Positions 6,659 through 26,820 of a stretch of DNA of 64,000 nucleotides are shown here, piece by piece. The first letter of the stretch is position 1; the number at the start of each line of letters is the position of its first letter. The translations under genes were made by a program, and so were the position numbers. A model generated the notes under the pieces. That model had not been told where the DNA came from and did no database searches. It was given only the letters and a program-made list of their open reading frames with translations. Source of the DNA: an uncultured Corynebacterium sp. (lineage in GTDB: Bacteria > Actinomycetota > Actinomycetes > Mycobacteriales > Mycobacteriaceae); NCBI RefSeq assembly GCF_946222985.1, contig NZ_CAMIFY010000002.1, positions 21,938-85,937 on the forward strand. The letters run 5' to 3'.

Positions 6659-6897
6659 GTCGTCTCCATTGGCAGGGGAAAAGTGTTTCGGATTTTATCA
6701 GGTGCACTTAAGGTCCGACGCATGTTCGGTGGGCCCATCATATTGTTTACACGGCTGAAATGTAATCCCCGTCACAGAAAAGAGATGCGTGACGACGTTC
6801 CGGCCCCCGCCCCACCCATGTCCGCCGGTCCGGAGGGTGCGGGGTGGACGGCGCACGTGGAGGACCCGTCGTCGTAAAGCCGAAGTGGGGCCGTAGG

Positions 6898-7986
<1,089 letters not shown>

Positions 7987-8061
7987 AAGGTGTGCAATCG
8001 AGCGGGTAGCTGAAAATTCCGATCAACGCTTGATTGAACGGCCGAAAGGCCAGTTCAGGGC

Positions 8062-8093
8062 GGTTCCGGGGAAGTCCGGGGCCGCCCTTTTCG
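8062..8093 (+). terminator. putative terminator after ychF
   Basis: Imperfect GC-rich hairpin ggcggttccgggg...ccggggccgcc followed by cttttcg. Confidence 0.3.
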
Positions 8094-8149
8094 TCTGCGT
8101 GGTGCGGCGGTGCGTTGCGGGCGTCGATGGGCTGGGGCCGGCGATCAGC

Positions 8150-8220
8150 GCAAACGCCTACGTTTGACGCAGACGCCTACGTTGCAACGTAGGTGTTTGT
8201 GCGCAGCGTAGGCGTTTGTG
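8150..8220. repeat. nested direct/inverted repeat cluster (acgcctacgtt x2, aacgtaggYg x2)
   Basis: caaacgcctacgtttg ... gacgcctacgttgcaacgtaggtg ... cagcgtaggcgtttg; central perfect palindrome cctacgttgcaacgtagg; lies just 3' of hydrolase gene stop (8222). Confidence 0.5.
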
Positions 8221-8221
8221 G

Positions 8222-9124
8222 TCAGGCGCCGTCGCCGGCGGCCGGGACGTGGCGTGCGAGGAAGTCCAGTTGCTGGGCGATGTTTCGCTCGAAGTCGTCG
8301 CCGACGTAGATGTCGAAATGACCGCCGGGCAGCATGTGCACCTCACCCTTCGGCGCCTTGCGAACGTGGCGCAGGGTGGGGCGCGGGGGAGCGACCGAAT
8401 CGTCCTCGCAGACGGCGACGTGCGCCGGGCACGAAATCTTCCGCGCGCTCCGCCCGGGGAAGTAGCGCACGATGTCCAGTCCGAACCGGGCCGTGATGTC
8501 CGAGCGGATGTCATCGCCCGGCGGCACGATCGCTTCGATGCCCGCCACGCAGTCCGGTGCCGTCATCAGGGCGGTCGAACCCGGCTCTCCGTACGCCGGA
8601 ACCATGATCGGCTTTCGGTTCCGCCACGCTGCGACGAGATCGCGCACGGCCAGCAGCCCGATCTTGACGAGAATCATGGGCGGCAGAGCCAGGGCGGAGG
8701 CCAATCCATCGGTGAACGGGCATTGTGCGATCACGGCGGCGAGCCTCGGATCGCGCGCCGCCGTCCGGATCACGTGGCCGCCGCCGAAGGACGTGCCCCA
8801 GATGATCACGCGGTCCGGATCGACCCCGTCGAGGCTCCGTGCGTGTGCGATCGCGGCGACCCAATCATCGAGCTGGCGTCGCACCGACAGAAGCTGACGG
8901 GGTTCCCCTCCGCTTGCGCCAAAGTGCCGGTAGTCGAACACCAGGCAGCGGTAGCCGGCGGCGGTGAAGCGCTCGGCGAAGGCGTCGAGACGCATCTGAC
9001 GCACCCCGGCGAGACCGTGGGCCATGACGATGATCGGCCCCGGGGCAGGGGCACCGTCGGGGACGTACAGCCATGCGGCGCAGGTGGCATCTCCGGACGG
9101 GAAGGTCACGTCAGTTCTGGTCAT
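8222..9124 (-). CDS. alpha/beta hydrolase
   Basis: HGxxG (MAHGLAG), nucleophile elbow GTSFGGG, C-terminal His; ATG at 9124 (MTRTDVTF), track ORF has 87-aa artefactual extension. Confidence 0.75.
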   Translation of the reverse strand: MTRTDVTFPSGDATCAAWLYVPDGAPAPGPIIVMAHGLAGVRQMRLDAFAERFTAAGYRCLVFDYRHFGASGGEPRQLLSVRRQLDDWVAAIAHARSLDGVDPDRVIIWGTSFGGGHVIRTAARDPRLAAVIAQCPFTDGLASALALPPMILVKIGLLAVRDLVAAWRNRKPIMVPAYGEPGSTALMTAPDCVAGIEAIVPPGDDIRSDITARFGLDIVRYFPGRSARKISCPAHVAVCEDDSVAPPRPTLRHVRKAPKGEVHMLPGGHFDIYVGDDFERNIAQQLDFLARHVPAAGDGA

Positions 9125-9201
9125 GCCAAAGACATTAGGGGAGACGCTTTTCGACGGATGGGGTTCGGACGGTGCCGGGCCGAAGCATCGCGTTTTCCGG
9201 A

Positions 9202-9585
9202 CTATCGACCGATCTTTTCGCCCTCGGACGCCTGGTCCATCGCGTCGATGTATCGGGTGAGGGCATTGCGCTTCTGCTCGAGGGCGGCGATGCGTTCGAC
9301 CATTTTGTCCCGTTGCTTCACGAGCATGGCGCGCAGCTCGGGATCGGGATCCGCCACGATCGTGCTGCTCGGGTCGTTCAGGCACGGGAGCATGTCGGCG
9401 ATGATGCGGGTGGGAATCCCCGAATCGAGGAGTTCTCGAATGACCTGCACCCGAGAGACGAGGTACTCGTCGTATTCGCGGTAGCCGTTGTCGAGCCGGC
9501 GCGGCGAGATGAGCCGTTGCTCCTCGTAGTACCGGAGCATGCGAGTGGGCACGCCGGTTCTCTTGGCCAATTCGCCGATGCGCAT
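9202..9585 (-). CDS. MerR family transcriptional regulator
   Basis: N-terminal HTH MRIGELAKRTGVPTRMLRYYE, coiled-coil dimerisation region; ATG 9585 with GGAGGAGAG RBS. Confidence 0.85.
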   Translation of the reverse strand: MRIGELAKRTGVPTRMLRYYEEQRLISPRRLDNGYREYDEYLVSRVQVIRELLDSGIPTRIIADMLPCLNDPSSTIVADPDPELRAMLVKQRDKMVERIAALEQKRNALTRYIDAMDQASEGEKIGR

Positions 9586-9620
9586 GCGACTCTCCTCCGC
9601 GTTCACGTCAAGGCTACGTG

Positions 9621-10337
9621 TCAGAACTGCCTTTCGGACACGGCCGCGCGCGTCGATTCGGCCAGGACCTCGCGGAGTCGATCAGCGGACAACGGACGCC
9701 CCTGGTCCGCCAGATAATCGGCATGGAAGACCTCGAGGTCGGCCACGTAGATCTGGGTGTAGGCGCCCGACTCCGGCTCGGTGCGCCAGGAATCGGCCAG
9801 GGCACCGGCATCGATCGGGTCAAAGCCGAAGTCGTCGATGATCGCCCCGACCTTCGCCTTGGCGTCCGCGTCGTCTCCGTAGGTGGCGAGGGCGGACCGA
9901 TCCGGGGACCCCGCGGTCCGCGCGAGCCGAGGGATGTGGTGGGCGAGGATGTTGTTGAAGGCCTTCACGATCACCGCCCCGGGGAGCAGCTTTCGTTCGT
10001 ACTCGGCCGTCGTCAGCTCGAGGGAATCGAGTTCTTCGATGCGCCCGTCGCGGCTGGGGTAGTAGTTGCCCGTCGACAGCACGACGCGGCCGGCGAGTTT
10101 TTCGGAGGGAAGATCCGCGTAGGCCGTCAGCGGGACGGAGAGGATCGTGAGGTCGCCGAACTCCGCGGCCTCGTCGACGGTCCCGGCGCTCGCTCCGTCG
10201 CCCAGATCGTCCACGAGCTCCGTGAGGCTCTCGGGTCCCCGTGAGTTCGCGACGAGCACGCGATGTCCCGCTGCCACCGCGAGACGGGCGAGGCCCGATC
10301 CGATCGCTCCGCTGCCGATGATTCCGATTTTCGTCAT
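9621..10337 (-). CDS. NAD(P)-binding oxidoreductase, NADPH-dependent F420 reductase (Npd)-like
   Basis: Rossmann GIIGSGAIGSGLA at N-terminus, family-typical length ~238 aa. Confidence 0.6.
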   Translation of the reverse strand: MTKIGIIGSGAIGSGLARLAVAAGHRVLVANSRGPESLTELVDDLGDGASAGTVDEAAEFGDLTILSVPLTAYADLPSEKLAGRVVLSTGNYYPSRDGRIEELDSLELTTAEYERKLLPGAVIVKAFNNILAHHIPRLARTAGSPDRSALATYGDDADAKAKVGAIIDDFGFDPIDAGALADSWRTEPESGAYTQIYVADLEVFHADYLADQGRPLSADRLREVLAESTRAAVSERQF

Positions 10338-16683: not shown

Positions 16684-17518
16684 CCCGGCCGGTCGCGGTG
16701 ACGTCGTCGAGCAGCATCCCCGGCCACCGATCGACGTCGGCCCGCGTCGACGCGACGTGCAGCACCGAGCGCGGCAGCAACTTCACCAGGGCCTGCGCGG
16801 TCGTCAGCGGGTGGGCCGGATCCTCCGTCCACGCCAGGATCGTGGTGGGCACGTCGATGGCGGTCAGCGCCCGCTGCGCCGGCAAATCGCTCATCGACGC
16901 GCCGCGGAACACCCACGGCAGCAGCTCGTCGGCGATGTCCGGCCTGGTCACCGGCGCCCCGGCGATGGCGGGCGGGTCGACGTGATCGCGCTCGACGTCG
17001 AGCAGCGCCTGCGGGCCATGCTTTGCGACGAGGTCCGCCGTCCGCCGATATTCCGCCGCCTTGGCCACCCGCGAGCCCCACGCCGTCGGCGGGGCCATCA
17101 ACGTGAAACCGCTGAACCGCTCGGGATCGAGGAGGGCGGCGTGGAGCATCGTCGCGCAACCCATCGACGGGCCCACGCCATGGACGCGCTCGCCGGGGAA
17201 GCGGTCGTCGAGAAGCAGCAGGAGATCCTCGGCGAGATTGGGCCAGCGGTAATCCTCGGCGACGGGGCGGCCGGTGGACTCGCCGTGGCCGCGCGCGTCG
17301 TAACGCAGGAGCCTCGTGCCGTGCAGACCTCGACCCAAGTCGAGGTTGAGCAGGCGATCGCGCGCCCGGCTCGACGTCAGACCGTGGAGCTGGACCACCG
17401 GATGGCCGCCCTCGTCGCTGAACTCGGTGGCCAGCTCCGCGCCGGGCACGGCGAACCGGGACATGGCGGGGGCGGCGTGCGTCGAATTCGTGCTGTCGTT
17501 GCTGCCCGTCACGTTCAT
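16676..17518 (-). CDS. alpha/beta hydrolase
   Basis: HGLTSS (HG motif), GPSMGC nucleophile elbow; ATG 17518 with GGAGAACGAGGA RBS (alternative ATG 17557). Confidence 0.75.
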   Translation of the reverse strand: MNVTGSNDSTNSTHAAPAMSRFAVPGAELATEFSDEGGHPVVQLHGLTSSRARDRLLNLDLGRGLHGTRLLRYDARGHGESTGRPVAEDYRWPNLAEDLLLLLDDRFPGERVHGVGPSMGCATMLHAALLDPERFSGFTLMAPPTAWGSRVAKAAEYRRTADLVAKHGPQALLDVERDHVDPPAIAGAPVTRPDIADELLPWVFRGASMSDLPAQRALTAIDVPTTILAWTEDPAHPLTTAQALVKLLPRSVLHVASTRADVDRWPGMLLDDVTATGRVT

Positions 17519-17557
17519 TCCTCGTTCTCCGCCGATCGTCGCGCGTTTCCGTCGCAT

Positions 17558-17705
17558 TTCCGGCGCGTATCCATTAAATGTCGAATCCGCATTTCATGCC
17601 GCGCATCGACAATTGCGCCGTAGTGTCGAATGCGTGAGATTAACCAATGTAGCGCACCTGGGCCTGCCCTTCGGCAAACTCGTCGGATACGACGTTTCCG
17701 TGTCC
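17558..17705. promoter_or_regulatory. relatively AT-rich divergent promoter region with short direct repeats
   Basis: gtcgaatccgca / gtcgaatgcg direct repeats, ttaaat, lower GC than flanks; separates hydrolase (-) and C-GNAT gene (+). Confidence 0.35.
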
Positions 17706-19442
17706 ATGACCGGGCGCCGATTGCCGATCTCGTTCGACCAGCGCCGCCACGTCTCCCGCGGCGACCGGCCGGGGTCCTGGATGGCCATCGCGTTCACGCT
17801 GCCGACGGTGGTCGACTGCGACCGGCTCGAGGCGGCGTGGCTGGCCGTCATCGAACGTCACGGGGCCCTGAGGTCGGCGTTCGTGCGCGATGAGGGGGAG
17901 GGCGGCGGCGACGGCGACGGCGACGGCGATTTCCACCTCGAGGACATCGACGTCGCCGCCGGCGAATGGGTCGAGCATCTCGTCGAACCGGGCCAGGCGA
18001 TGAACGATGCGCTCAAGCGCGTCCTCGATGAGCGGTGCACCCCGTTTTCGGCGCCGTCGCACAGATTATGCGCCATTGAAACGGTGTCGGATACGACGGT
18101 GATCATCGGCATCGACCATTCGCACACCGACATGTGGTCGATGTTGGTGATATTGCGCGATTTGCTCGCGGCGATGGGCGAATCCGCCGGCGACGGGGTG
18201 CCGCAATTGGCGGAGGTGCCCGCATTCGCCGAACACACCGGTGCGATGCGGCGGCGCCGCCCCTCGCCGGAGGAGATCCATCGCCGGTGGGCGGAGGTGC
18301 TCGCGGCCAGCGGCGGGGTCATGCCGCGGTTCCCGTTGCCGCTCGGCGAGCCGGGCCCGCACGTCGAGCGCGTCGAGGTCCGCGACGTCCTCGACGTCGA
18401 CGACGCGGCGGCGTTTTCCGCGCAGGCCCGCGAGGACGGGGTGTCGTCGTTGTCGACGGTGGTCGCGGCGATGACGGCGGTGACCATGGATTTCGCCGGC
18501 GCGCCGTTGCGTGCGGTGTTCCCGGTCCACAGTCGCCACGAGCGCACGTGGCATGACTCGGTGGGGTGGTTCATCACCAACTCCGTCCTGGAATCGGCGG
18601 ACCCGGATCCGAAGGCCTGCGCCGCGGCGGTGAAGGAGGCGGTGCGCCTGGGGTCGTGGCCGTTGGAGGACGTCATGGAGCCGTGGGGAGGCATGCCGGA
18701 ATCGCCGGGGATGTTCGCCATTTCGTGGCTCGACCTGCGGCGGTTGCCGGTGCGCGTCGATTCGATCGGTCTGCGGGCCCAGTACGTCGGCGCCAGCGTG
18801 CGCCCCGACGGCGTGATGCTGTGGTTCATCCTCGACGACACCGGTCTTCATTTGCGGTGCCGTTATCCGGACACGGTCGCGGCCCGCCGCAACGTCGGCG
18901 GTTGGCTCGATGCGCTGGTCCGCGACATCCGCGGTCGCGCCCGCGAGTCGGTCGGTGGTTTGCTGCGGCGCGGCGACCGCACGTTCCGGGTGCAGCGGGC
19001 GGTGCGGTCGGATGTCGCGGACATCGTCACTTTGCTTTCCGACGGCGAGCTCGGCACCACGAGAGAGCGCCTCGCCCGTGAAAGCGGTGACCAGGCGGCG
19101 TACGAAACCGCCTTCGACGCCGTGAACCGTGATCCGAGCCAGTATCTGGCGGTGGTCAAGGACGAAGTCGGCGTGACGGTCGGCACGATGCAGTTGTCGA
19201 TCCTGCCCGGGTTGTCGCGCAGCGGGGCGACGCGGCTGCAGGTCGAGGGCGTGCGCGTCGCCCCGGAGGTCAGCGGCCTGGGGTTGGGCACGGCGATGCT
19301 GGAATGGGCGCACGAGCACGGGCGCGCCCGAGGTGCGACGCTGGCGCAGCTGACCACGGACCGCGCCCGGCCCCGCGCCCACGCGTTCTACGAACGACTC
19401 GGTTACGGCGCCAGCCACACGGGGTTCAAGCGGACGCTGTGA
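17706..19442 (+). CDS. condensation (C)-domain-like acyltransferase fused to C-terminal GNAT acetyltransferase
   Basis: HHxxxDG-type motif DHSHTDMWS within ~430-aa C-domain-like region; C-terminal GNAT motif VAPEVSGLGLGTAMLEWAHEHG; ATG 17706 (track ORF extends upstream over hydrolase gene). Confidence 0.6.
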   Translation: MTGRRLPISFDQRRHVSRGDRPGSWMAIAFTLPTVVDCDRLEAAWLAVIERHGALRSAFVRDEGEGGGDGDGDGDFHLEDIDVAAGEWVEHLVEPGQAMNDALKRVLDERCTPFSAPSHRLCAIETVSDTTVIIGIDHSHTDMWSMLVILRDLLAAMGESAGDGVPQLAEVPAFAEHTGAMRRRRPSPEEIHRRWAEVLAASGGVMPRFPLPLGEPGPHVERVEVRDVLDVDDAAAFSAQAREDGVSSLSTVVAAMTAVTMDFAGAPLRAVFPVHSRHERTWHDSVGWFITNSVLESADPDPKACAAAVKEAVRLGSWPLEDVMEPWGGMPESPGMFAISWLDLRRLPVRVDSIGLRAQYVGASVRPDGVMLWFILDDTGLHLRCRYPDTVAARRNVGGWLDALVRDIRGRARESVGGLLRRGDRTFRVQRAVRSDVADIVTLLSDGELGTTRERLARESGDQAAYETAFDAVNRDPSQYLAVVKDEVGVTVGTMQLSILPGLSRSGATRLQVEGVRVAPEVSGLGLGTAMLEWAHEHGRARGATLAQLTTDRARPRAHAFYERLGYGASHTGFKRTL

Positions 19443-21446: not shown

Positions 21447-21893
21447 CTACCGGCCGGCGTCCGGGCGCCGACGCGTCGACTTCAAATCGGAGCGCCGCTT
21501 CTTCGCCGCCAACCGCCGCCGCACCGAACCGCGCGTGGGCCGGGTCCTGCGCCGGGGCGGAGGGGGCGGGGCGAGCGCTTCGCGAAGCAACGACGCCAAC
21601 CGCTCGCGGGCTTCGTTGCGATTGCGCAGCTGCGATCGCTGCGTCGACGCCGAGACCATGAGCACCGTGCCGTCCACGCGGCCGTCGAGATTGCGCAGAA
21701 CGCGGCGGCGCTGGGCGTCGGTGAACGCACCCGTGGCGGCGATGTCGATCGACAGCTGAACCTTGCTGTCGGTGGTGTTGACGCCCTGACCGCCCGGCCC
21801 CGACGACCGGGCGAATCGCTCCGTGAGGTCGGCGGCGGGGATGACCAGGCCACCGGGGATCCCGGGGCCTGGCGGAATGGTCAACGCGTCCAT
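21447..21893 (-). CDS. arfB: alternative ribosome-rescue factor ArfB (peptidyl-tRNA hydrolase)
   Basis: GGQ motif SGPGGQGVNTT, basic C-terminal tail (KKRRSDLKSTRRR). Confidence 0.85.
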   Translation of the reverse strand: MDALTIPPGPGIPGGLVIPAADLTERFARSSGPGGQGVNTTDSKVQLSIDIAATGAFTDAQRRRVLRNLDGRVDGTVLMVSASTQRSQLRNRNEARERLASLLREALAPPPPPRRRTRPTRGSVRRRLAAKKRRSDLKSTRRRPDAGR

Positions 21894-21983: not shown

Positions 21984-23834
21984 TCAAGCGACGACGGTCT
22001 GCTCCGATCCGAGCCGACGATTCATGGCCGCCGCAAACTGCTCGGCGTCGGGGCCGACGATGAGATGCCAGACGTCGTCGCCGACACGGGCCGCGGCGGG
22101 CAACTCGTCGCCGGACAACGCGGTCGAATCGACCTTCGCGGAATCGGCGACGACCACCCGCAGGCGCGTCTGCGCGACCGGCTCGACGGAGACGATGTTG
22201 TCGGCGCCGCCCAGCGCGTCGATCCACGCGACCGCCCGGCCCTGCTCCGCATCGCCGACGACGATGACCTTCGGCTCGCCGGCATCGGCCCCCGGGTCGA
22301 CGCCGCCGCGCTCCCTTGCTTCACGACGCTGCTCCGGGGTCCGGTAATCCGTGACCACCACGAGGATCATCGCGGTGAAGAACGCCGCGGCGATCGCGAT
22401 CAGGTAGATCCACACGGGGTCGAACACCGGGATGGTCAACAGCGAAGTGAAGACGAAGGCGGTGGTCTGCACGCCACCGGTGCCCGCACCGAGCAGACCG
22501 ATGATCACGCCGCCGACGAAACAACCCACCAGCATCCTCGGGTAGATCCGCTTGAACCGCAGATGGATGCCGTACAGCGACGGCTCGGAAATGCCGCCGA
22601 ACAGGCCGGCCGCCAGCGCACCGGAGGCGGTCTGCCGCATCTGCCGGTCACGGTCGCGCATCGCCAGCACCAGCACGCCGGCGGTGGCGCCGAAGCACGC
22701 GAAGTTCCACACGCCCATCGGGCCCTGGATGAAGTCGTAGCCCAGCGTGCTGATGTTGACCAGCATCAGGGCGTTGAGCGGCCAATGCAGGCCCAGCGGC
22801 ACCAGGAACGGGAACAACATCGGGATGAGGATGGCGAAGATGATGGGGAAGCTCTCGTTGAGCACCGACAGCCCCGAGCCCAGGCCCGTGCCGAGCCAGA
22901 TGCCCAGCGGGCCGATGAGGAACGCGGTCAACGGGATCATGACCAGCATCGACAGGAACGGCACGAAGACCATCTGGATGTTCTCCGGGAAGATCCGCTT
23001 CCAGAAGCGGTACACCAGGGCGAGCACCGCGGCCATGATCAGCGGGACGAAGACCTGCCCGCCGTAGTCGTTGAGCTGCAGCGGGATCCCGAAGATGTTG
23101 GCCACGCACGACTCGGTGCCCAGGTCGGTGGTGGTGCACACCGTCGACGACACCTGCTGGACCTGCTCGTAGACGCCGCTGCCCGGGGCGGTTTCGTTGT
23201 AGGCCTTGGCGCCGAGGCTGATGAACTCCGGCGTCATCACCGCGCCCATCACCGCCGCGCCGAGCCACGGGTCGACGTTGAGCTTCTTGGCCGCGTTGTA
23301 GGCGACCATGATCGGCAGGAAGTAGAACACCGAGCGCCACAGCGCGTCGACGAAGATCCAGCCCGCCGGCTTGTCCTCCGCGCGGAAATCGACGAAGCCC
23401 AGCGCATCCATGATGGCGGCGAAGGCGATGATGAACGACGCGCCGAGCAGCACGCCCAGGATCGGGCGGAAGCTGTCCGACAGGTACTCGAAGAAGTTGT
23501 CCAGCCACGCGGACTTGCCGCGGGCCTTGGCCCGGGCGGCGGCCTTGACGTCGGCGTCGCTGCCGGCGGTGCCTGAACCGGACCCGCCGCCCTTCATCTC
23601 CGGCAGGTTGTTGATCTCGTTGTAGGAGTCCTGCACCGACCCGGCGACGATGATCTGCAGGCGGTCGCCGGATTGGGGCACGGCGCCGATCACCCCGTCG
23701 AGGTTTTCGATTTCGGCCGGGTCGACGCCCGAGGCGTCGGACAGCTCGAAGCGCAGTCGGGTGGCGCAGTGGGTGAGACTGACGATGTTGTCCGGGCCGC
23801 CGACGGCCGACAGGATTTCTTTGGCGGAACTCAT
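21984..23834 (-). CDS. PTS permease EIIB-EIIC with additional C-terminal Cys-less EIIB-like domain
   Basis: N-terminal EIIB NIVSLTHCATRLRF (phospho-Cys), EIIC core, C-terminal ALGGADNIVSVEPVAQTRLRVVVADSAKVD...IVGPDAEQFAAAM homologous to EIIB(Glc) but lacking the Cys. Confidence 0.8.
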   Translation of the reverse strand: MSSAKEILSAVGGPDNIVSLTHCATRLRFELSDASGVDPAEIENLDGVIGAVPQSGDRLQIIVAGSVQDSYNEINNLPEMKGGGSGSGTAGSDADVKAAARAKARGKSAWLDNFFEYLSDSFRPILGVLLGASFIIAFAAIMDALGFVDFRAEDKPAGWIFVDALWRSVFYFLPIMVAYNAAKKLNVDPWLGAAVMGAVMTPEFISLGAKAYNETAPGSGVYEQVQQVSSTVCTTTDLGTESCVANIFGIPLQLNDYGGQVFVPLIMAAVLALVYRFWKRIFPENIQMVFVPFLSMLVMIPLTAFLIGPLGIWLGTGLGSGLSVLNESFPIIFAILIPMLFPFLVPLGLHWPLNALMLVNISTLGYDFIQGPMGVWNFACFGATAGVLVLAMRDRDRQMRQTASGALAAGLFGGISEPSLYGIHLRFKRIYPRMLVGCFVGGVIIGLLGAGTGGVQTTAFVFTSLLTIPVFDPVWIYLIAIAAAFFTAMILVVVTDYRTPEQRREARERGGVDPGADAGEPKVIVVGDAEQGRAVAWIDALGGADNIVSVEPVAQTRLRVVVADSAKVDSTALSGDELPAAARVGDDVWHLIVGPDAEQFAAAMNRRLGSEQTVVA

Positions 23835-23913: not shown

Positions 23914-26673
23914 TCAGACTGCTCGGTCGTCGTCGGCCGGGACCAGGGCCCGGACTTCGGCCGCCGTCGCGCACTCGAGCGCGGCGGAGGCCAGCTGCTC
24001 GCATTCGCTCCGGGAGCGGGAGCGGATCGCGGCCTTGACGGAGGGGATGACGGGCAGGGAACAGCTCAACTCGTCGACGCCGAGGCCGACGAGGATGGGC
24101 ACGGCCTGCGGGTCGCCGGCGATGCCGCCGCAGACGCCGATCCATTTGCCGTGCTCGTGCAGGGCTTCGGCGGCGTTGGCGATCAGTCCGAGCACCGCGG
24201 GGTCCAGGCCGTCGGCTTGGGCGGCGAGTTTGGGGTGGCCGCGGTCGATGGCCAGCGTGTAGCTGGTCAGGTCGTTGGTGCCGACGCTGAAGAAGTCGCA
24301 GCCGGGTTCGGCGGCGAAGCGCTTGGCCATGACGGCGACGCTGGGCACCTCCATCATGATTCCGACCGAGACCTTCGCGGTGAATCCGCCGGCGGCGCGT
24401 TCCTCGTCGAAGATGGCCTTGGCGCGGCGCCAGTCGTCGATGCCGGAGATCATGGGGAACATCAGGTGCAGGTCGGCGCCGGACGTGCGGCCGGCTTCGG
24501 ACGCGCCGTCTGCGCTGCCCGAGCCACCCGCACCATCCGCGACTTCCTGCGCCGCGGCGAGCACGGCCCGGCACTGGGAGCGCAGCAGGTCGGGTCGGTC
24601 GAGGCCGATGCGGATGCCGCGCATGCCCAGGAACGGGTTCTCTTCGGCGGGCATGGACACGTAGGGCAGCGGCTTGTCGCCGCCGACGTCGAGGGTGCGG
24701 ACCACCAGCGGGACGCCGGCGCCCAGGACCCGGGCGCACTCGGCGTAGATGCGGGCCTGCTCGTCGTCGGTGGGCGCCGATGCGCGGCCCATGAACGCGA
24801 ATTCGCTGCGCATCAGGCCGGCGCCCTCGGCTCCGACGGTGATGGCTTGGCGGGCGTCGTCGGCGCCGCCGATGTTGGCGGCCACGGCGATGCGGTGGCC
24901 GTCGGTGGTGACGGCGGGTTCGTCCTTGCGGGCGTAGTCGGCGGCCTTGCGTTCGGCGATGCGGCGCTGGCGGTCGCGGATGGCGGCGACGTCGGATTCG
25001 GAGACGCCGATGGTCAGGGTGCCGGCCGCGCCGTCGAGCACTGCGGTGGTTCCGTCGGGCACGTTGAGCGCCATGGTTTCGATGCCGGCGACGGCCGGGA
25101 TGTCGAGGGAGCGGGCGATGATCGCGACGTGGCTGCTGGCGCCGCCGCCGGTGGTGGCGAATCCGACGACCCGGTCGCGGTCGAGTTGCGCCGTGTCGGA
25201 CGGGGTCAGCTCCTCGGCGACGAGGATCGCGTTGTCCGGGAGTTCGGACTTTTCGCGGCGTTGGCCGGTGATTTCCTCCAGAACCCGCTTGCCGACGTCG
25301 CGGACGTCGTCGGCGCGTCCCGCCAGCACCTCGTTGTCGAGGCCCGCGAGGCGATCGGCGAACGCGGCGTACGCGCCGCGCCAGGCGAAGGCCGCGCTCT
25401 TGCCCTTGTCGATGCCGCTGCGCGCCAGGTCCAGCAGCTCGGGGTCGCGGAGGATCTCGCCGTGGGCGGCGAAGATGGCGGCCTTGCCCTCGTCGGAGTC
25501 GTCGGAGAGCTTCTTCTCCAGGGCCGACAGCGACAGCAGCGCGCGGTCGATGGCGGAGTTGAGCACGCGGGTCTCGGCGTGCCGGTCGCCGCCGAACTCG
25601 GCGACCTCGATGTCGTCGTGGCGCAGCTGAACGATGGTGCCGACGCCGAGGCCGGGGGAGGCCGTGACGCCGGAGAGGATGTTCGGGTCACCGGATCGGG
25701 GCGCGGTGGTGGCGCTGGTCTCGGTGCCGGAGGTCGCAGAGGTCGTGGAGGCCGCGGTGGCCGAGACGGCCGCGGCACCGGCGACGTCCGCGCCGGTTGT
25801 TCCTGTCGCGCCAGCCGCGCCTACTGCGTCTCCACCGGTGATCGAACCCGCGTCGAGCGCGCCCGCGTCGATCGGCGGGCAATCTTCGCCGAGGCCCTCG
25901 CGAATCGCGCGGGAGACCGCGTCGACGGCCTCCGCGGCGTCGGCGCCGTGGGCGGTGACGACGATCTTGTCGCCGTGATCGACGGACATCGCCATGATCG
26001 AGGTGATCGACTTCGCGTTGGCGGAGTCGTCGCCGCGCCGCAGCCGCACGTCGGCGGTGAAGGTCTTCGCCAGCGCCACCAGCGTCGCCGACGGCCGCGC
26101 GTGCAACCCCGTGGGGTTGGGCACGAGGATCGCGTCGGAGGCGACGGTGGTTCCGGCCGGGGCGGTGGTGGACTCGTCGTCAAGCACGGCCAGCTCCACC
26201 GTCGCCGCGACGTCGCGACCCGCGGCGACGACTCCCGTCGCGGGCGCCAGGACGGCGATGCGATCGGAGTTGGCGACGACGATCTGCGTCAGCAGGCTCT
26301 TGGCCTCGCGGGCGATGGCGTCGAGGTCGAAATCGATGAGCGCGTCGCCGACGGCGACCGCATCACCGACCGAGACGCGCGGCGAGAATCCCGCCCCCTG
26401 CAGGCGCACGGTGTCCAGGCCGATGTGCATGAGCACCTCGAGGCCGTGGGCGTCGCGCACCGTCACTGCGTGGCCCGACGACTGCAGATCGATCACCTCG
26501 CCGGCGACGGGGGAGACCAGGCGCCCCTCGATCGGGTCGATGGAGATCCCCTCGCCGACCATCTTCTTGGCGAAGACGGCGTCGGGCACCTCCTCTATGG
26601 GGATCATCACGCCGCTGAGCGGGGCGATGAGTTCGATTTTCTTCGTCGGTGAACCGTGTGGCACGTGCGCCAT
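23914..26673 (-). CDS. multiphosphoryl transfer protein EIIA(Glc)-HPr-EI (NagF/FruB-like fusion)
   Basis: EIIA-Glc (SGHAV, MHIGLDTV), HPr (GLHARPSA, AKSITSIM), A/T/G/S-rich linker, EI with GGGASSHVAIIARSLDIPAV; ATG 26673. Confidence 0.85.
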   Translation of the reverse strand: MAHVPHGSPTKKIELIAPLSGVMIPIEEVPDAVFAKKMVGEGISIDPIEGRLVSPVAGEVIDLQSSGHAVTVRDAHGLEVLMHIGLDTVRLQGAGFSPRVSVGDAVAVGDALIDFDLDAIAREAKSLLTQIVVANSDRIAVLAPATGVVAAGRDVAATVELAVLDDESTTAPAGTTVASDAILVPNPTGLHARPSATLVALAKTFTADVRLRRGDDSANAKSITSIMAMSVDHGDKIVVTAHGADAAEAVDAVSRAIREGLGEDCPPIDAGALDAGSITGGDAVGAAGATGTTGADVAGAAAVSATAASTTSATSGTETSATTAPRSGDPNILSGVTASPGLGVGTIVQLRHDDIEVAEFGGDRHAETRVLNSAIDRALLSLSALEKKLSDDSDEGKAAIFAAHGEILRDPELLDLARSGIDKGKSAAFAWRGAYAAFADRLAGLDNEVLAGRADDVRDVGKRVLEEITGQRREKSELPDNAILVAEELTPSDTAQLDRDRVVGFATTGGGASSHVAIIARSLDIPAVAGIETMALNVPDGTTAVLDGAAGTLTIGVSESDVAAIRDRQRRIAERKAADYARKDEPAVTTDGHRIAVAANIGGADDARQAITVGAEGAGLMRSEFAFMGRASAPTDDEQARIYAECARVLGAGVPLVVRTLDVGGDKPLPYVSMPAEENPFLGMRGIRIGLDRPDLLRSQCRAVLAAAQEVADGAGGSGSADGASEAGRTSGADLHLMFPMISGIDDWRRAKAIFDEERAAGGFTAKVSVGIMMEVPSVAVMAKRFAAEPGCDFFSVGTNDLTSYTLAIDRGHPKLAAQADGLDPAVLGLIANAAEALHEHGKWIGVCGGIAGDPQAVPILVGLGVDELSCSLPVIPSVKAAIRSRSRSECEQLASAALECATAAEVRALVPADDDRAV

Positions 26674-26820
26674 CCTCAACTCGTGGCCCTGTGTTCAGGT
26701 TCGCCCGAGATTGGCCGAACCAGATCCCTAATGAGATTCACAGTACGCCCGAAGTTTCGGGTGGCCCAGTACTTTTTCCGCCCGCCGGCGGCCCTGTCCG
26801 AAACCCCGCGGACCAGGTGA

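Follow-up and report, generated by a model that had tools for sequence, protein, structure and literature searches.

A Cys-less second EIIB-fold domain in Glc-family phosphotransferase permeases encoded next to EIIA-HPr-EI fusion genes

We analyzed a 64,000-nucleotide (nt) stretch of DNA from an uncultured Corynebacterium sp. (contig NZ_CAMIFY010000002.1, positions 21,938 to 85,937), hereafter called the window, and found that it encodes a sugar permease of the phosphoenolpyruvate (PEP)-dependent phosphotransferase system (PTS) whose C-terminal domain has the fold of EIIB and no Cys. The permease is the product of an open reading frame (ORF) of 616 amino acids (aa) at positions 21984..23834 of the window on the minus strand, and its Pfam domains are an EIIB domain, an EIIC domain and a second EIIB-fold domain, designated B' here (B-C-B' architecture). 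B' is under purifying selection, it belongs to a subfamily separate from canonical EIIB, and it occurs together with, and has been transferred together with, a gene for an EIIA-HPr-EI fusion protein. In the closest sister permeases, the place of B' is taken by an EIIA domain. Given these observations, we propose that B' may serve as a docking site for the fusion protein.

The permease ORF showed the codon pattern of a real gene, with a third-position GC content of 0.93 in a window of ~70% GC overall. A Pfam scan of the permease detected PTS_EIIB at residues 5-38, PTS_EIIC at residues 119-431 and another PTS_EIIB stretch near the C-terminus. The N-terminal catalytic EIIB (residues 1-78; 23601..23834, minus strand) matched PF00367 with 60.4 bits, and it has the canonical loop 'HCATRLR' (within 'THCATRLRF'), in which the Cys at position 23 was retained in 90 of 90 homologues. 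When the C-terminal 122 aa were scanned alone, PF00367 was matched with 43.6 bits (E 2e-11; curated cutoff 27), which places B' (residues 528-616; 21987..22253, minus strand) in the same family. Furthermore, an AlphaFold2 (AF2) model of the isolated B' domain had a mean predicted local distance difference test (pLDDT) score of 86, and a Foldseek search with this model matched 1o2f_B with a root-mean-square deviation (rmsd) of 1.2 Å over 76 residues (template modeling (TM) score 0.88, E 3e-7), as well as 3bp8_C, the EIIB chain of the Mlc/EIIB complex, with an rmsd of 1.3 Å. As judged from the predicted model, B' is superposable on the EIIB(Glc) fold with its four-stranded sheet and three helices.

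Canonical EIIB carries its phosphorylatable Cys two residues before Thr-Arg in the loop between beta1 and beta2, and no such Cys was found in B'. In the B' loop 'VEPVAQTRLR' (residues 550-559; 22158..22187, minus strand), position -2 from Thr556 is occupied by Ala554 and position -3 by Val553. The top PDB matches in a phmmer search were E. coli EIIB(Glc) chains, and the alignment paired 'NIVSVEPVAQTRLRV' with 'NITNLDA-CITRLRV' of E. coli EIIB(Glc) (E 8e-4), a register that puts Ala554 at the position of Cys421 of EIIB(Glc) and gives the B' loop a one-residue insertion. The register obtained with MAFFT differed, with the canonical Cys opposite Val553, and B' has no Cys under either of the two. 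In fact, Cys residues of the permease are located only at positions 23, 233, 243, 380 and 438, none of which lies in B'. The Thr-Arg-x-Arg motif is retained; T556 and R557 were invariant, and A554 and R559 were conserved in at least 90% of sequences. The sole His past residue 500, and thus the only one in B', is H590 (codon 22065..22067, minus strand), which replaces the canonical Gln on beta4 in 'VWHLIVG'. Although invariant, H590 was not counted as a correctly placed acceptor, because it lies elsewhere than the acceptor site and because its own position is taken by Asp in about half of the C-B-B' relatives described below; re-alignment revealed no other Cys or His in a suitable place. By its fold, B' belongs to EIIB type 1, in which it is a non-catalytic member. 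The B-C-B' architecture and the loss of Cys are both real, far beyond chance. The first-pass annotation of this DNA had described a canonical N-terminal EIIB and a C-terminal EIIB that had lost its Cys and could not be phosphorylated on it, and this description was borne out by Pfam, phmmer and AF2/Foldseek for the architecture and by Cys23, Ala554 (or Val553) and the Cys-free B' for the residues.

The conservation of B' was assessed in the best 120 database matches of the permease, ~90 of which were full-length B-C-B' proteins (577-617 aa) from Janibacter, Arachnia, Tessaracoccus, Actinotignum, Actinomycetaceae and other Actinomycetota. One database entry, labelled uncultured Corynebacterium, was 100% identical to the window permease. 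Among 90 B-C-B' homologues, the residue two before Thr-Arg was Ala in 89 and Gly in one, so that the loss of Cys, for which a survey of homologues had been advised, was conserved in 90/90. The residue at -3 was Ile, Val or Leu in 87, the whole B' domain was free of Cys in 88, and His was present at the H590 position in all 90. The ratios of nonsynonymous to synonymous substitutions (dN/dS), calculated by the Nei-Gojobori method on 64 gene pairs, were 0.18 for B', 0.21 for the catalytic EIIB and 0.17 for EIIC, and the reading frame through B' was continuous in the 90 homologues. The conserved Ala/Gly position and the dN/dS value of B' indicate that it is a maintained domain and not a remnant; on the same grounds, the possibility that this region is a frameshifted piece of a separate gene, which had been considered in the first-pass annotation, was excluded. 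Note that in Tessaracoccus coleopterorum (L047, ~6800-10255) the fusion and B-C-B' genes were matched by tblastn in broken pieces, with most of EI gone, which suggests that the module is decaying in this species.

A B' profile was built from 38 B' domains and searched against 1.84 billion representative proteins, yielding 439 proteins at E<1e-10. Many of these matches contained a canonical EIIB ('DAC[IT]TRLR ... Q[AV][IV].G') followed by a B'-type domain, the hallmarks of which were a loop '..A.TR.R' one residue longer than the canonical one and '.[HD][LVI]..G' on beta4. Full-length examples were EIIC-EIIB-B' (C-B-B') permeases of ~590-640 aa, whose database labels say no more than 'PTS glucose transporter subunit IIBC' or 'N-acetylglucosamine-specific IIBC', and their hosts included Burkholderia, Paraburkholderia, Caballeronia, Competibacteraceae, the cyanobacterium Nodosilinea and Elusimicrobia, among others. 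B' was conserved in at least five bacterial phyla. Position -2 was Cys in 361 of 361 canonical EIIB domains and Ala in 237 of the 239 B' domains of the C-B-B' type; position -3 was His, Tyr or Ala in the canonical domains and Leu (118), Cys (97) or Val (17) in the B' domains; and the beta4 residue was Gln in at least 354 of the canonical domains and Asp (119) or His (117) in the B' domains.

A B' hidden Markov model (HMM) was also made from the actinobacterial B' sequences, whose own median score of 141 bits is therefore partly circular. Canonical EIIBs scored 19-47 bits on this HMM (medians 24-30), and the B' domains of the C-B-B' type, which are an independent set, had a median of 65 bits. 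As a working definition of the B' subfamily, we used 'A-x-[TS]-R-x-R' in a longer loop, His or Asp on beta4, and a score of at least ~55 bits on the B' HMM; the loop, the beta4 residue and the HMM score of the window B' all fall within this definition. The mean distance between the two B' groups was 1.36, compared with ~1.9 from them to any canonical group. On sequence grounds, the loop insertion, Ala at -2, the change on beta4 and an 'ADQYA' helix motif support one origin of B', and B' can be regarded as a distinct EIIB subfamily that is present in two permease architectures and is not peculiar to the window protein. Among the other proteins encountered, P0121, P0168, P0156, P0130 and P0146 are small proteins with 3-4 tandem EIIB(Glc) domains and no EIIC; they differ from B' in that all of their repeats are canonical and bear Cys.

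Directly upstream of the permease gene, with a gap of 79 nt, an EIIA(Glc)-HPr-EI multiphosphoryl transfer protein (MTP) of 921 aa is encoded at 23914..26679 on the minus strand. Pfam detected PTS_EIIA_1 at residues 16-140, PTS-HPr at residues 183-260, and PEP-utilisers_N, PEP-utilizers and PEP-utilizers_C at residues 337-888 of the MTP, and its relay residues were intact, namely His70, His85, His193 and the EI His in 'GGGASSH'. The window MTP is longer than the fusions of other phyla (843-858 aa), and the extra length apparently resides in an Ala/Thr/Gly-rich linker between HPr and EI (~270-335) and a Gly/Ser/Ala-rich insertion in the C-terminal part of EI (~735-765). Synteny was scanned with one genome per species and a 9-sequence B' alignment, which gave 52 B' loci, seven of them uninformative because they were cut inside the permease gene. 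An orthologous fusion gene was located immediately upstream of the permease gene, on the same strand, in 45 of 45 informative actinobacterial loci. No other gene family, whether of regulators, hydrolases or kinases, was conserved around the fusion-permease pair in the 52 loci, and no catabolic gene was linked to the pair in the window or in these loci. The EIIA-HPr-EI fusion gene was likewise directly upstream of the C-B-B' permease gene in 6 of 6 loci examined, which were those of Nodosilinea, Competibacteraceae, Elusimicrobia, a JGI metagenome contig, Caballeronia insecticola and Burkholderia sp. YI23. In a separate locus (L064:1862-3784), a 640-aa ORF (P0162) adjoining phosphoglucomutase and glucosamine-6-phosphate isomerase genes consists of EIIA, HPr, the N-terminal domain of EI, EIIB and B', without the EI catalytic domain or EIIC; it looks like an in-frame deletion between adjacent fusion and C-B-B' genes, or a misassembly.

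The closest sister clade of the window permease consists of EIIBCA permeases. One of these, P0118 of Propionicimonas, shares EIIB, EIIC and the 'DYRTPEQ[KR]' linker with the window permease and is 72% identical to it from the N-terminus through this linker, but the homology stops at residue 505, and P0118 has a real EIIA there in place of B'. The neighbors of the sister permeases also differ from those of the window permease, as they include an antiterminator of the BglG type, with PRD domains, and, in the locus L058, separate genes for HPr (88 aa) and EI (561 aa), and no fusion gene. On the other hand, the window MTP resembled the fusions of the C-B-B' cassettes; the identity was 48-55% for EI (51-55% in four of five, and 48% for Elusimicrobia) and 49-57% for HPr, whereas it was 36% for both the separate EI and the separate HPr of the sister operon. 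These identities, together with the closeness of the two B' groups to each other, indicate that B' and the fusion gene moved jointly onto a different permease core. By this sequence comparison, the module is a chimera, in which B' and the fusion gene were both gained by a local B-C core of the beta-glucoside type. B' is hence linked with the fusion protein and not with the core of the permease.

In the rest of the permease, EIIB and EIIC are joined by a flexible linker rich in Gly, Ser and Ala (residues 79-112; 23499..23600, minus strand), which had pLDDT values of 53-59 in a full-length AF2 model with a mean pLDDT of 80.9. The EIIC membrane domain (residues 113-495; 22350..23498, minus strand) matched PF02378 with 110 bits and has the 'GISEP' motif at 414. 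Its NCBIfam scores were under the cutoffs for TIGR01995 (beta-glucoside; 332.8 vs. 614.7) and for TIGR01996 (sucrose; 248.2 vs. 559.3); EIIC is clearly of the beta-glucoside/sucrose branch of the Glc family, and the scores assign no sugar specificity to it. The last membrane helix is connected to B' by a coil (residues 496-527; 22254..22349, minus strand; pLDDT 48-71), which contains 'DYRTPEQR', common to the EIIBCA sister, and a conserved unstructured 'EPKVIVVGD' (residues 519-527; 22254-22280). The latter is a short hydrophobic motif just before B' that is strongly conserved in the actinobacterial family. Both AF2 models rendered it as a coil of low pLDDT, and the full-length model shows no partner segment for it; this 'EPxV[IV]VVGD' segment may serve to contact a partner. 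B' folded in the full-length model as it did in isolation, at the end of the low-confidence linker. As for genes outside the module, an RF-1-domain protein of 148 aa (an ArfB-like peptidyl-tRNA hydrolase; 21447-21893, minus strand) is encoded on the same strand, 90 nt downstream of the permease gene; in the other loci, this gene is not a conserved neighbor of the module. A 708-aa ORF at 17316-19442 on the plus strand shows an unusual pairing of a Condensation-type domain (155-428) with a C-terminal GNAT acetyltransferase.

The fold and motif of B', the selection acting on it, the synteny, the contrast with the sister clade, the joint transfer and the precedent of FruA, which is described below, underlie our docking proposal. 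The fusion protein and the permease, encoded by two adjacent genes on the minus strand, would form a self-contained PTS, in which phosphate would pass from PEP to the His of EI, to the His of HPr, to the His of EIIA, to Cys23 of EIIB and then to the sugar in EIIC, an order that follows from established PTS biochemistry and the intact relay residues. B' would be a non-catalytic paralogue of EIIB(Glc), held on a flexible tether of ~30 residues exactly where sister permeases bear a covalent EIIA. From this position, it would dock the bulky, dimeric, EI-containing fusion protein at its own transporter, most likely via the EIIA domain of the fusion, so that a non-covalent tether would stand in for the covalent EIIA tether. 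In the 1O2F complex, the EIIB(Glc) arginines equivalent to R557 and R559 reportedly contact acidic residues around the active site of EIIA, as well as the phosphoryl group. We consider the chances evenly divided as to whether B' is a docking site for the EIIA-HPr-EI fusion in the manner of FruA IIB'; the binding itself, the partner domain and an effect on transport are what we infer.

Several points weigh against docking. Binding at the active face of EIIA would place B' in competition with the catalytic EIIB, in which case its benefit would not be obvious. In addition, the docking model leaves the 'EPxVIVVGD' motif and the His/Asp position on beta4 unaccounted for. A neighbor-joining tree united all B' domains with a bootstrap of just 145/300, so that the grouping of B' rests on distances, HMM scores and shared motifs and not on the tree. 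Furthermore, the sucrose operon on the Ralstonia solanacearum megaplasmid, found in 134 records, encodes an EIIA-HPr-EI fusion together with a 465-aa EIIBC that has no B', indicating that such fusions can work without B'. The genes of two divergent B'-like proteins, P0181 and P0261, were flanked by SIS and phosphoglucomutase genes, with no fusion gene in the short flanks available, and part of the co-occurrence between B' and the fusion could reflect the inheritance of one cassette. A strict two-way rule linking B' and the fusion was rejected in view of the Ralstonia ScrA without B' and of P0181 and P0261; in the core family, the presence of B' entails that of the fusion gene, and the converse does not hold. 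P0181 and P0261 (L062 and L063) are C-B-B'-like, and their second EIIB likewise lacks the Cys ('TATSQTRIC' and 'YIALTRIR').

The docking proposal can be extended to a broader one, in which B' would be a second, independently evolved class of non-phosphorylatable IIB-prime anchors, this time in the Glc superfamily, and the fusion and the permease would be assembled by it into a stable, insulated PTS machine at the membrane. In line with a private relay that is docked, the NagF/NagE system of R. eutropha 'functions independently from' the EI and HPr of the general PTS (PMC3222305). If this extension is true, the phosphorelay would be private, without phosphate exchange with the general PTS, and it would be understandable that two-gene cassettes cross phyla whole and are grafted onto different permease cores. 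We hold the extension only tentatively and as less probable than docking itself.

Other roles can be envisaged for B', and the one closest to docking is that of a pseudo-substrate brake or sensor, which would compete for phospho-EIIA and thereby throttle flux or insulate a private relay, without being an anchor. Such a role is consistent with a B' that keeps the Thr-Arg-x-Arg loop, which surrounds the phosphoryl group in canonical EIIB, and lacks the acceptor. The independence of NagF/NagE from general EI and HPr would suit a brake too (PMC3222305), and the ability of some fusion-dependent permeases to work without B' fits a modulatory role better than an essential one. However, the replacement of EIIA by B' at the same linker points more directly to recruitment than to inhibition, and a brake overlaps with docking, as both need B' to bind the fusion protein; we regard a brake without an anchor as unlikely. 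Less probable still is a purely intramolecular role in dimer stability, folding or EIIB positioning, without contact to the fusion. It would agree with the conservation of B', the purifying selection and the confident folding of B' in the full-length model, but the linker is flexible and of low confidence and no packing is evident from the confidence profile. B' also occurs in two unrelated layouts (B-C-B' and C-B-B'), always with the same neighbor gene and moved with that gene, and a sister core with 72% identity works without it. The first-pass annotation had suggested a regulatory or docking pseudo-EIIB; its docking part stands as the best reading, reached by inference, and its regulatory part, in which B' as a permanent mimic of dephospho-EIIB would sequester an Mlc-like repressor at the membrane, found no support. 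Such a mimic would accord with the match of the B' model to 3bp8_C, with the membrane tether and with the inability of B' to be phosphorylated on Cys. But no regulator gene was conserved near the module in the 52 loci, the PRD antiterminator that regulates the sister clade is absent from the B' clade, sequestration that is constitutive regardless of sugar supply would lose the signal, and the link between B' and the fusion gene would go unexplained. The 64-kb window contained no ROK signature. The absence of a regulator gene nearby is weak evidence, however, since mlc and ptsG are unlinked in E. coli as well. Taken together, we think the Mlc-type mimic very unlikely.

Two further explanations concern the lost acceptor itself. 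B' might carry phosphate on another residue, the candidates being His590 in the window protein and, in ~40% of the C-B-B' relatives sampled, a Cys at -3. His590 replaces the conserved Gln of beta4 in 90 of 90 actinobacterial B' domains, beta4 presumably lies beside the hairpin that bears the loop (as we take it from the strand register and the structure of EIIB(Glc)), and 'C-A-x-T-R' is present in 97 of 239 B' domains of the C-B-B' type. The idea of a His590 acceptor was nevertheless downgraded because Asp stands at this position in half of the C-B-B' set (119/239); position -3 is mostly Leu, Val or Ile, and a catalytic residue would not be expected to vary in this way within one domain family. 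Given in addition that the window B' is free of Cys and that the relay is already complete at Cys23, an alternative acceptor is highly improbable. Finally, the loss of a catalytic Cys is what would be expected of a decaying domain, and B' might be thought of as a relic without function, left by an EIIB that was duplicated or captured or by a neighbor gene that suffered a frameshift. Its dN/dS is on par with those of the catalytic domains, it has invariant positions of its own, and it is conserved across phyla with an uninterrupted frame in the 90 homologues, leaving a relic next to no probability; the frameshift or remnant reading is effectively refuted by the conservation and the dN/dS.

In a full-text search of openly accessible literature, we came across no account of a second EIIB without Cys in permeases of the Glc family, nor of an association between such a domain and fusion genes. 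Literature matches to 'EIIB-like domain' concerned PRD regulators such as AtxA and MafR, and they were set aside as belonging to a family different from B'. The sequences themselves are public and PF00367 is marked on them by Pfam, with labels that read only 'IIBC' or 'EIIC'. A Cys-less domain of the EIIB(Glc) fold is common, conserved and tied to EIIA-HPr-EI fusions across phyla, and it offers a concrete hypothesis, easy to test, on how multidomain phosphoryl-transfer proteins locate the transporter that belongs to them and remain with it. Recognition of B' would improve the annotation of permeases that are now labelled just 'IIBC' or 'EIIC', and it may help to predict, for a given PTS module, whether there is phosphate exchange between it and the general PTS. 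It would also be relevant to the engineering of Burkholderiaceae, whose glucose and N-acetylglucosamine PTS permeases bear B'.

Among known systems, E. coli PtsG EIIB(Glc) (1O2F, 3BP3 and 3BP8) is like B' in fold (rmsd 1.2-1.3 Å at ~30% identity), Pfam family, Thr-Arg-x-Arg and tethering to EIIC. In contrast to it, B' has Ala554 instead of Cys, its loop is longer by one residue, its beta4 carries His where Gln is canonical, and it is present in addition to a functional EIIB, as a second copy. The C-B-B' permeases, which are partners of NagF/PtsA-type fusions, share with the window permease the C-terminal domain of the B' subfamily, the upstream fusion and the two-gene cassette. They differ in having the C-B-B' order on an EIIC of the Glc/Nag type, as opposed to B-C-B' on an EIIC of the beta-glucoside/sucrose type, and many of them have Cys at -3 or Asp on beta4.

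The closest functional parallel may be the fructose permease. In a passage of PMC6872149 that cites Charbit et al. 1996, the IIB' of FruA is described as an extra IIB copy that is not used in phosphoryl transfer and acts in protein-protein interaction, and an extra non-catalytic IIB' is treated there as peculiar to the fructose system. This IIB' has as its partner a multidomain phosphoryl-transfer protein, FruB or one of the FruB type, whose gene is adjacent, and the IIA(Glc)-type fusions are thought to be derived from those of the FruB type (PMC2405797). In Competibacteraceae (L054:983-8779), a FruA-type permease with duplicated PF02302 IIB and a GH1 glycosidase are encoded immediately upstream of a Glc-type fusion and C-B-B' permease, so that both kinds of extra-IIB system lie side by side. 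The IIB' of E. coli FruA (IIB'-IIB-IIC) and B' are alike in being extra IIB copies without an acceptor and in having an adjacent multidomain phosphoryl-transfer partner. The FruA domain is reported to be required for PEP-dependent activity and to be dispensable for transphosphorylation. They are unlike in fold and placement, since the IIB of FruA has the PF02302 fold and B' that of PF00367, and since IIB' is N-terminal and B' C-terminal. The different folds and families make this likeness one of analogy and not of homology, and B' may accordingly be viewed as the Glc-superfamily analogue of FruA IIB'.

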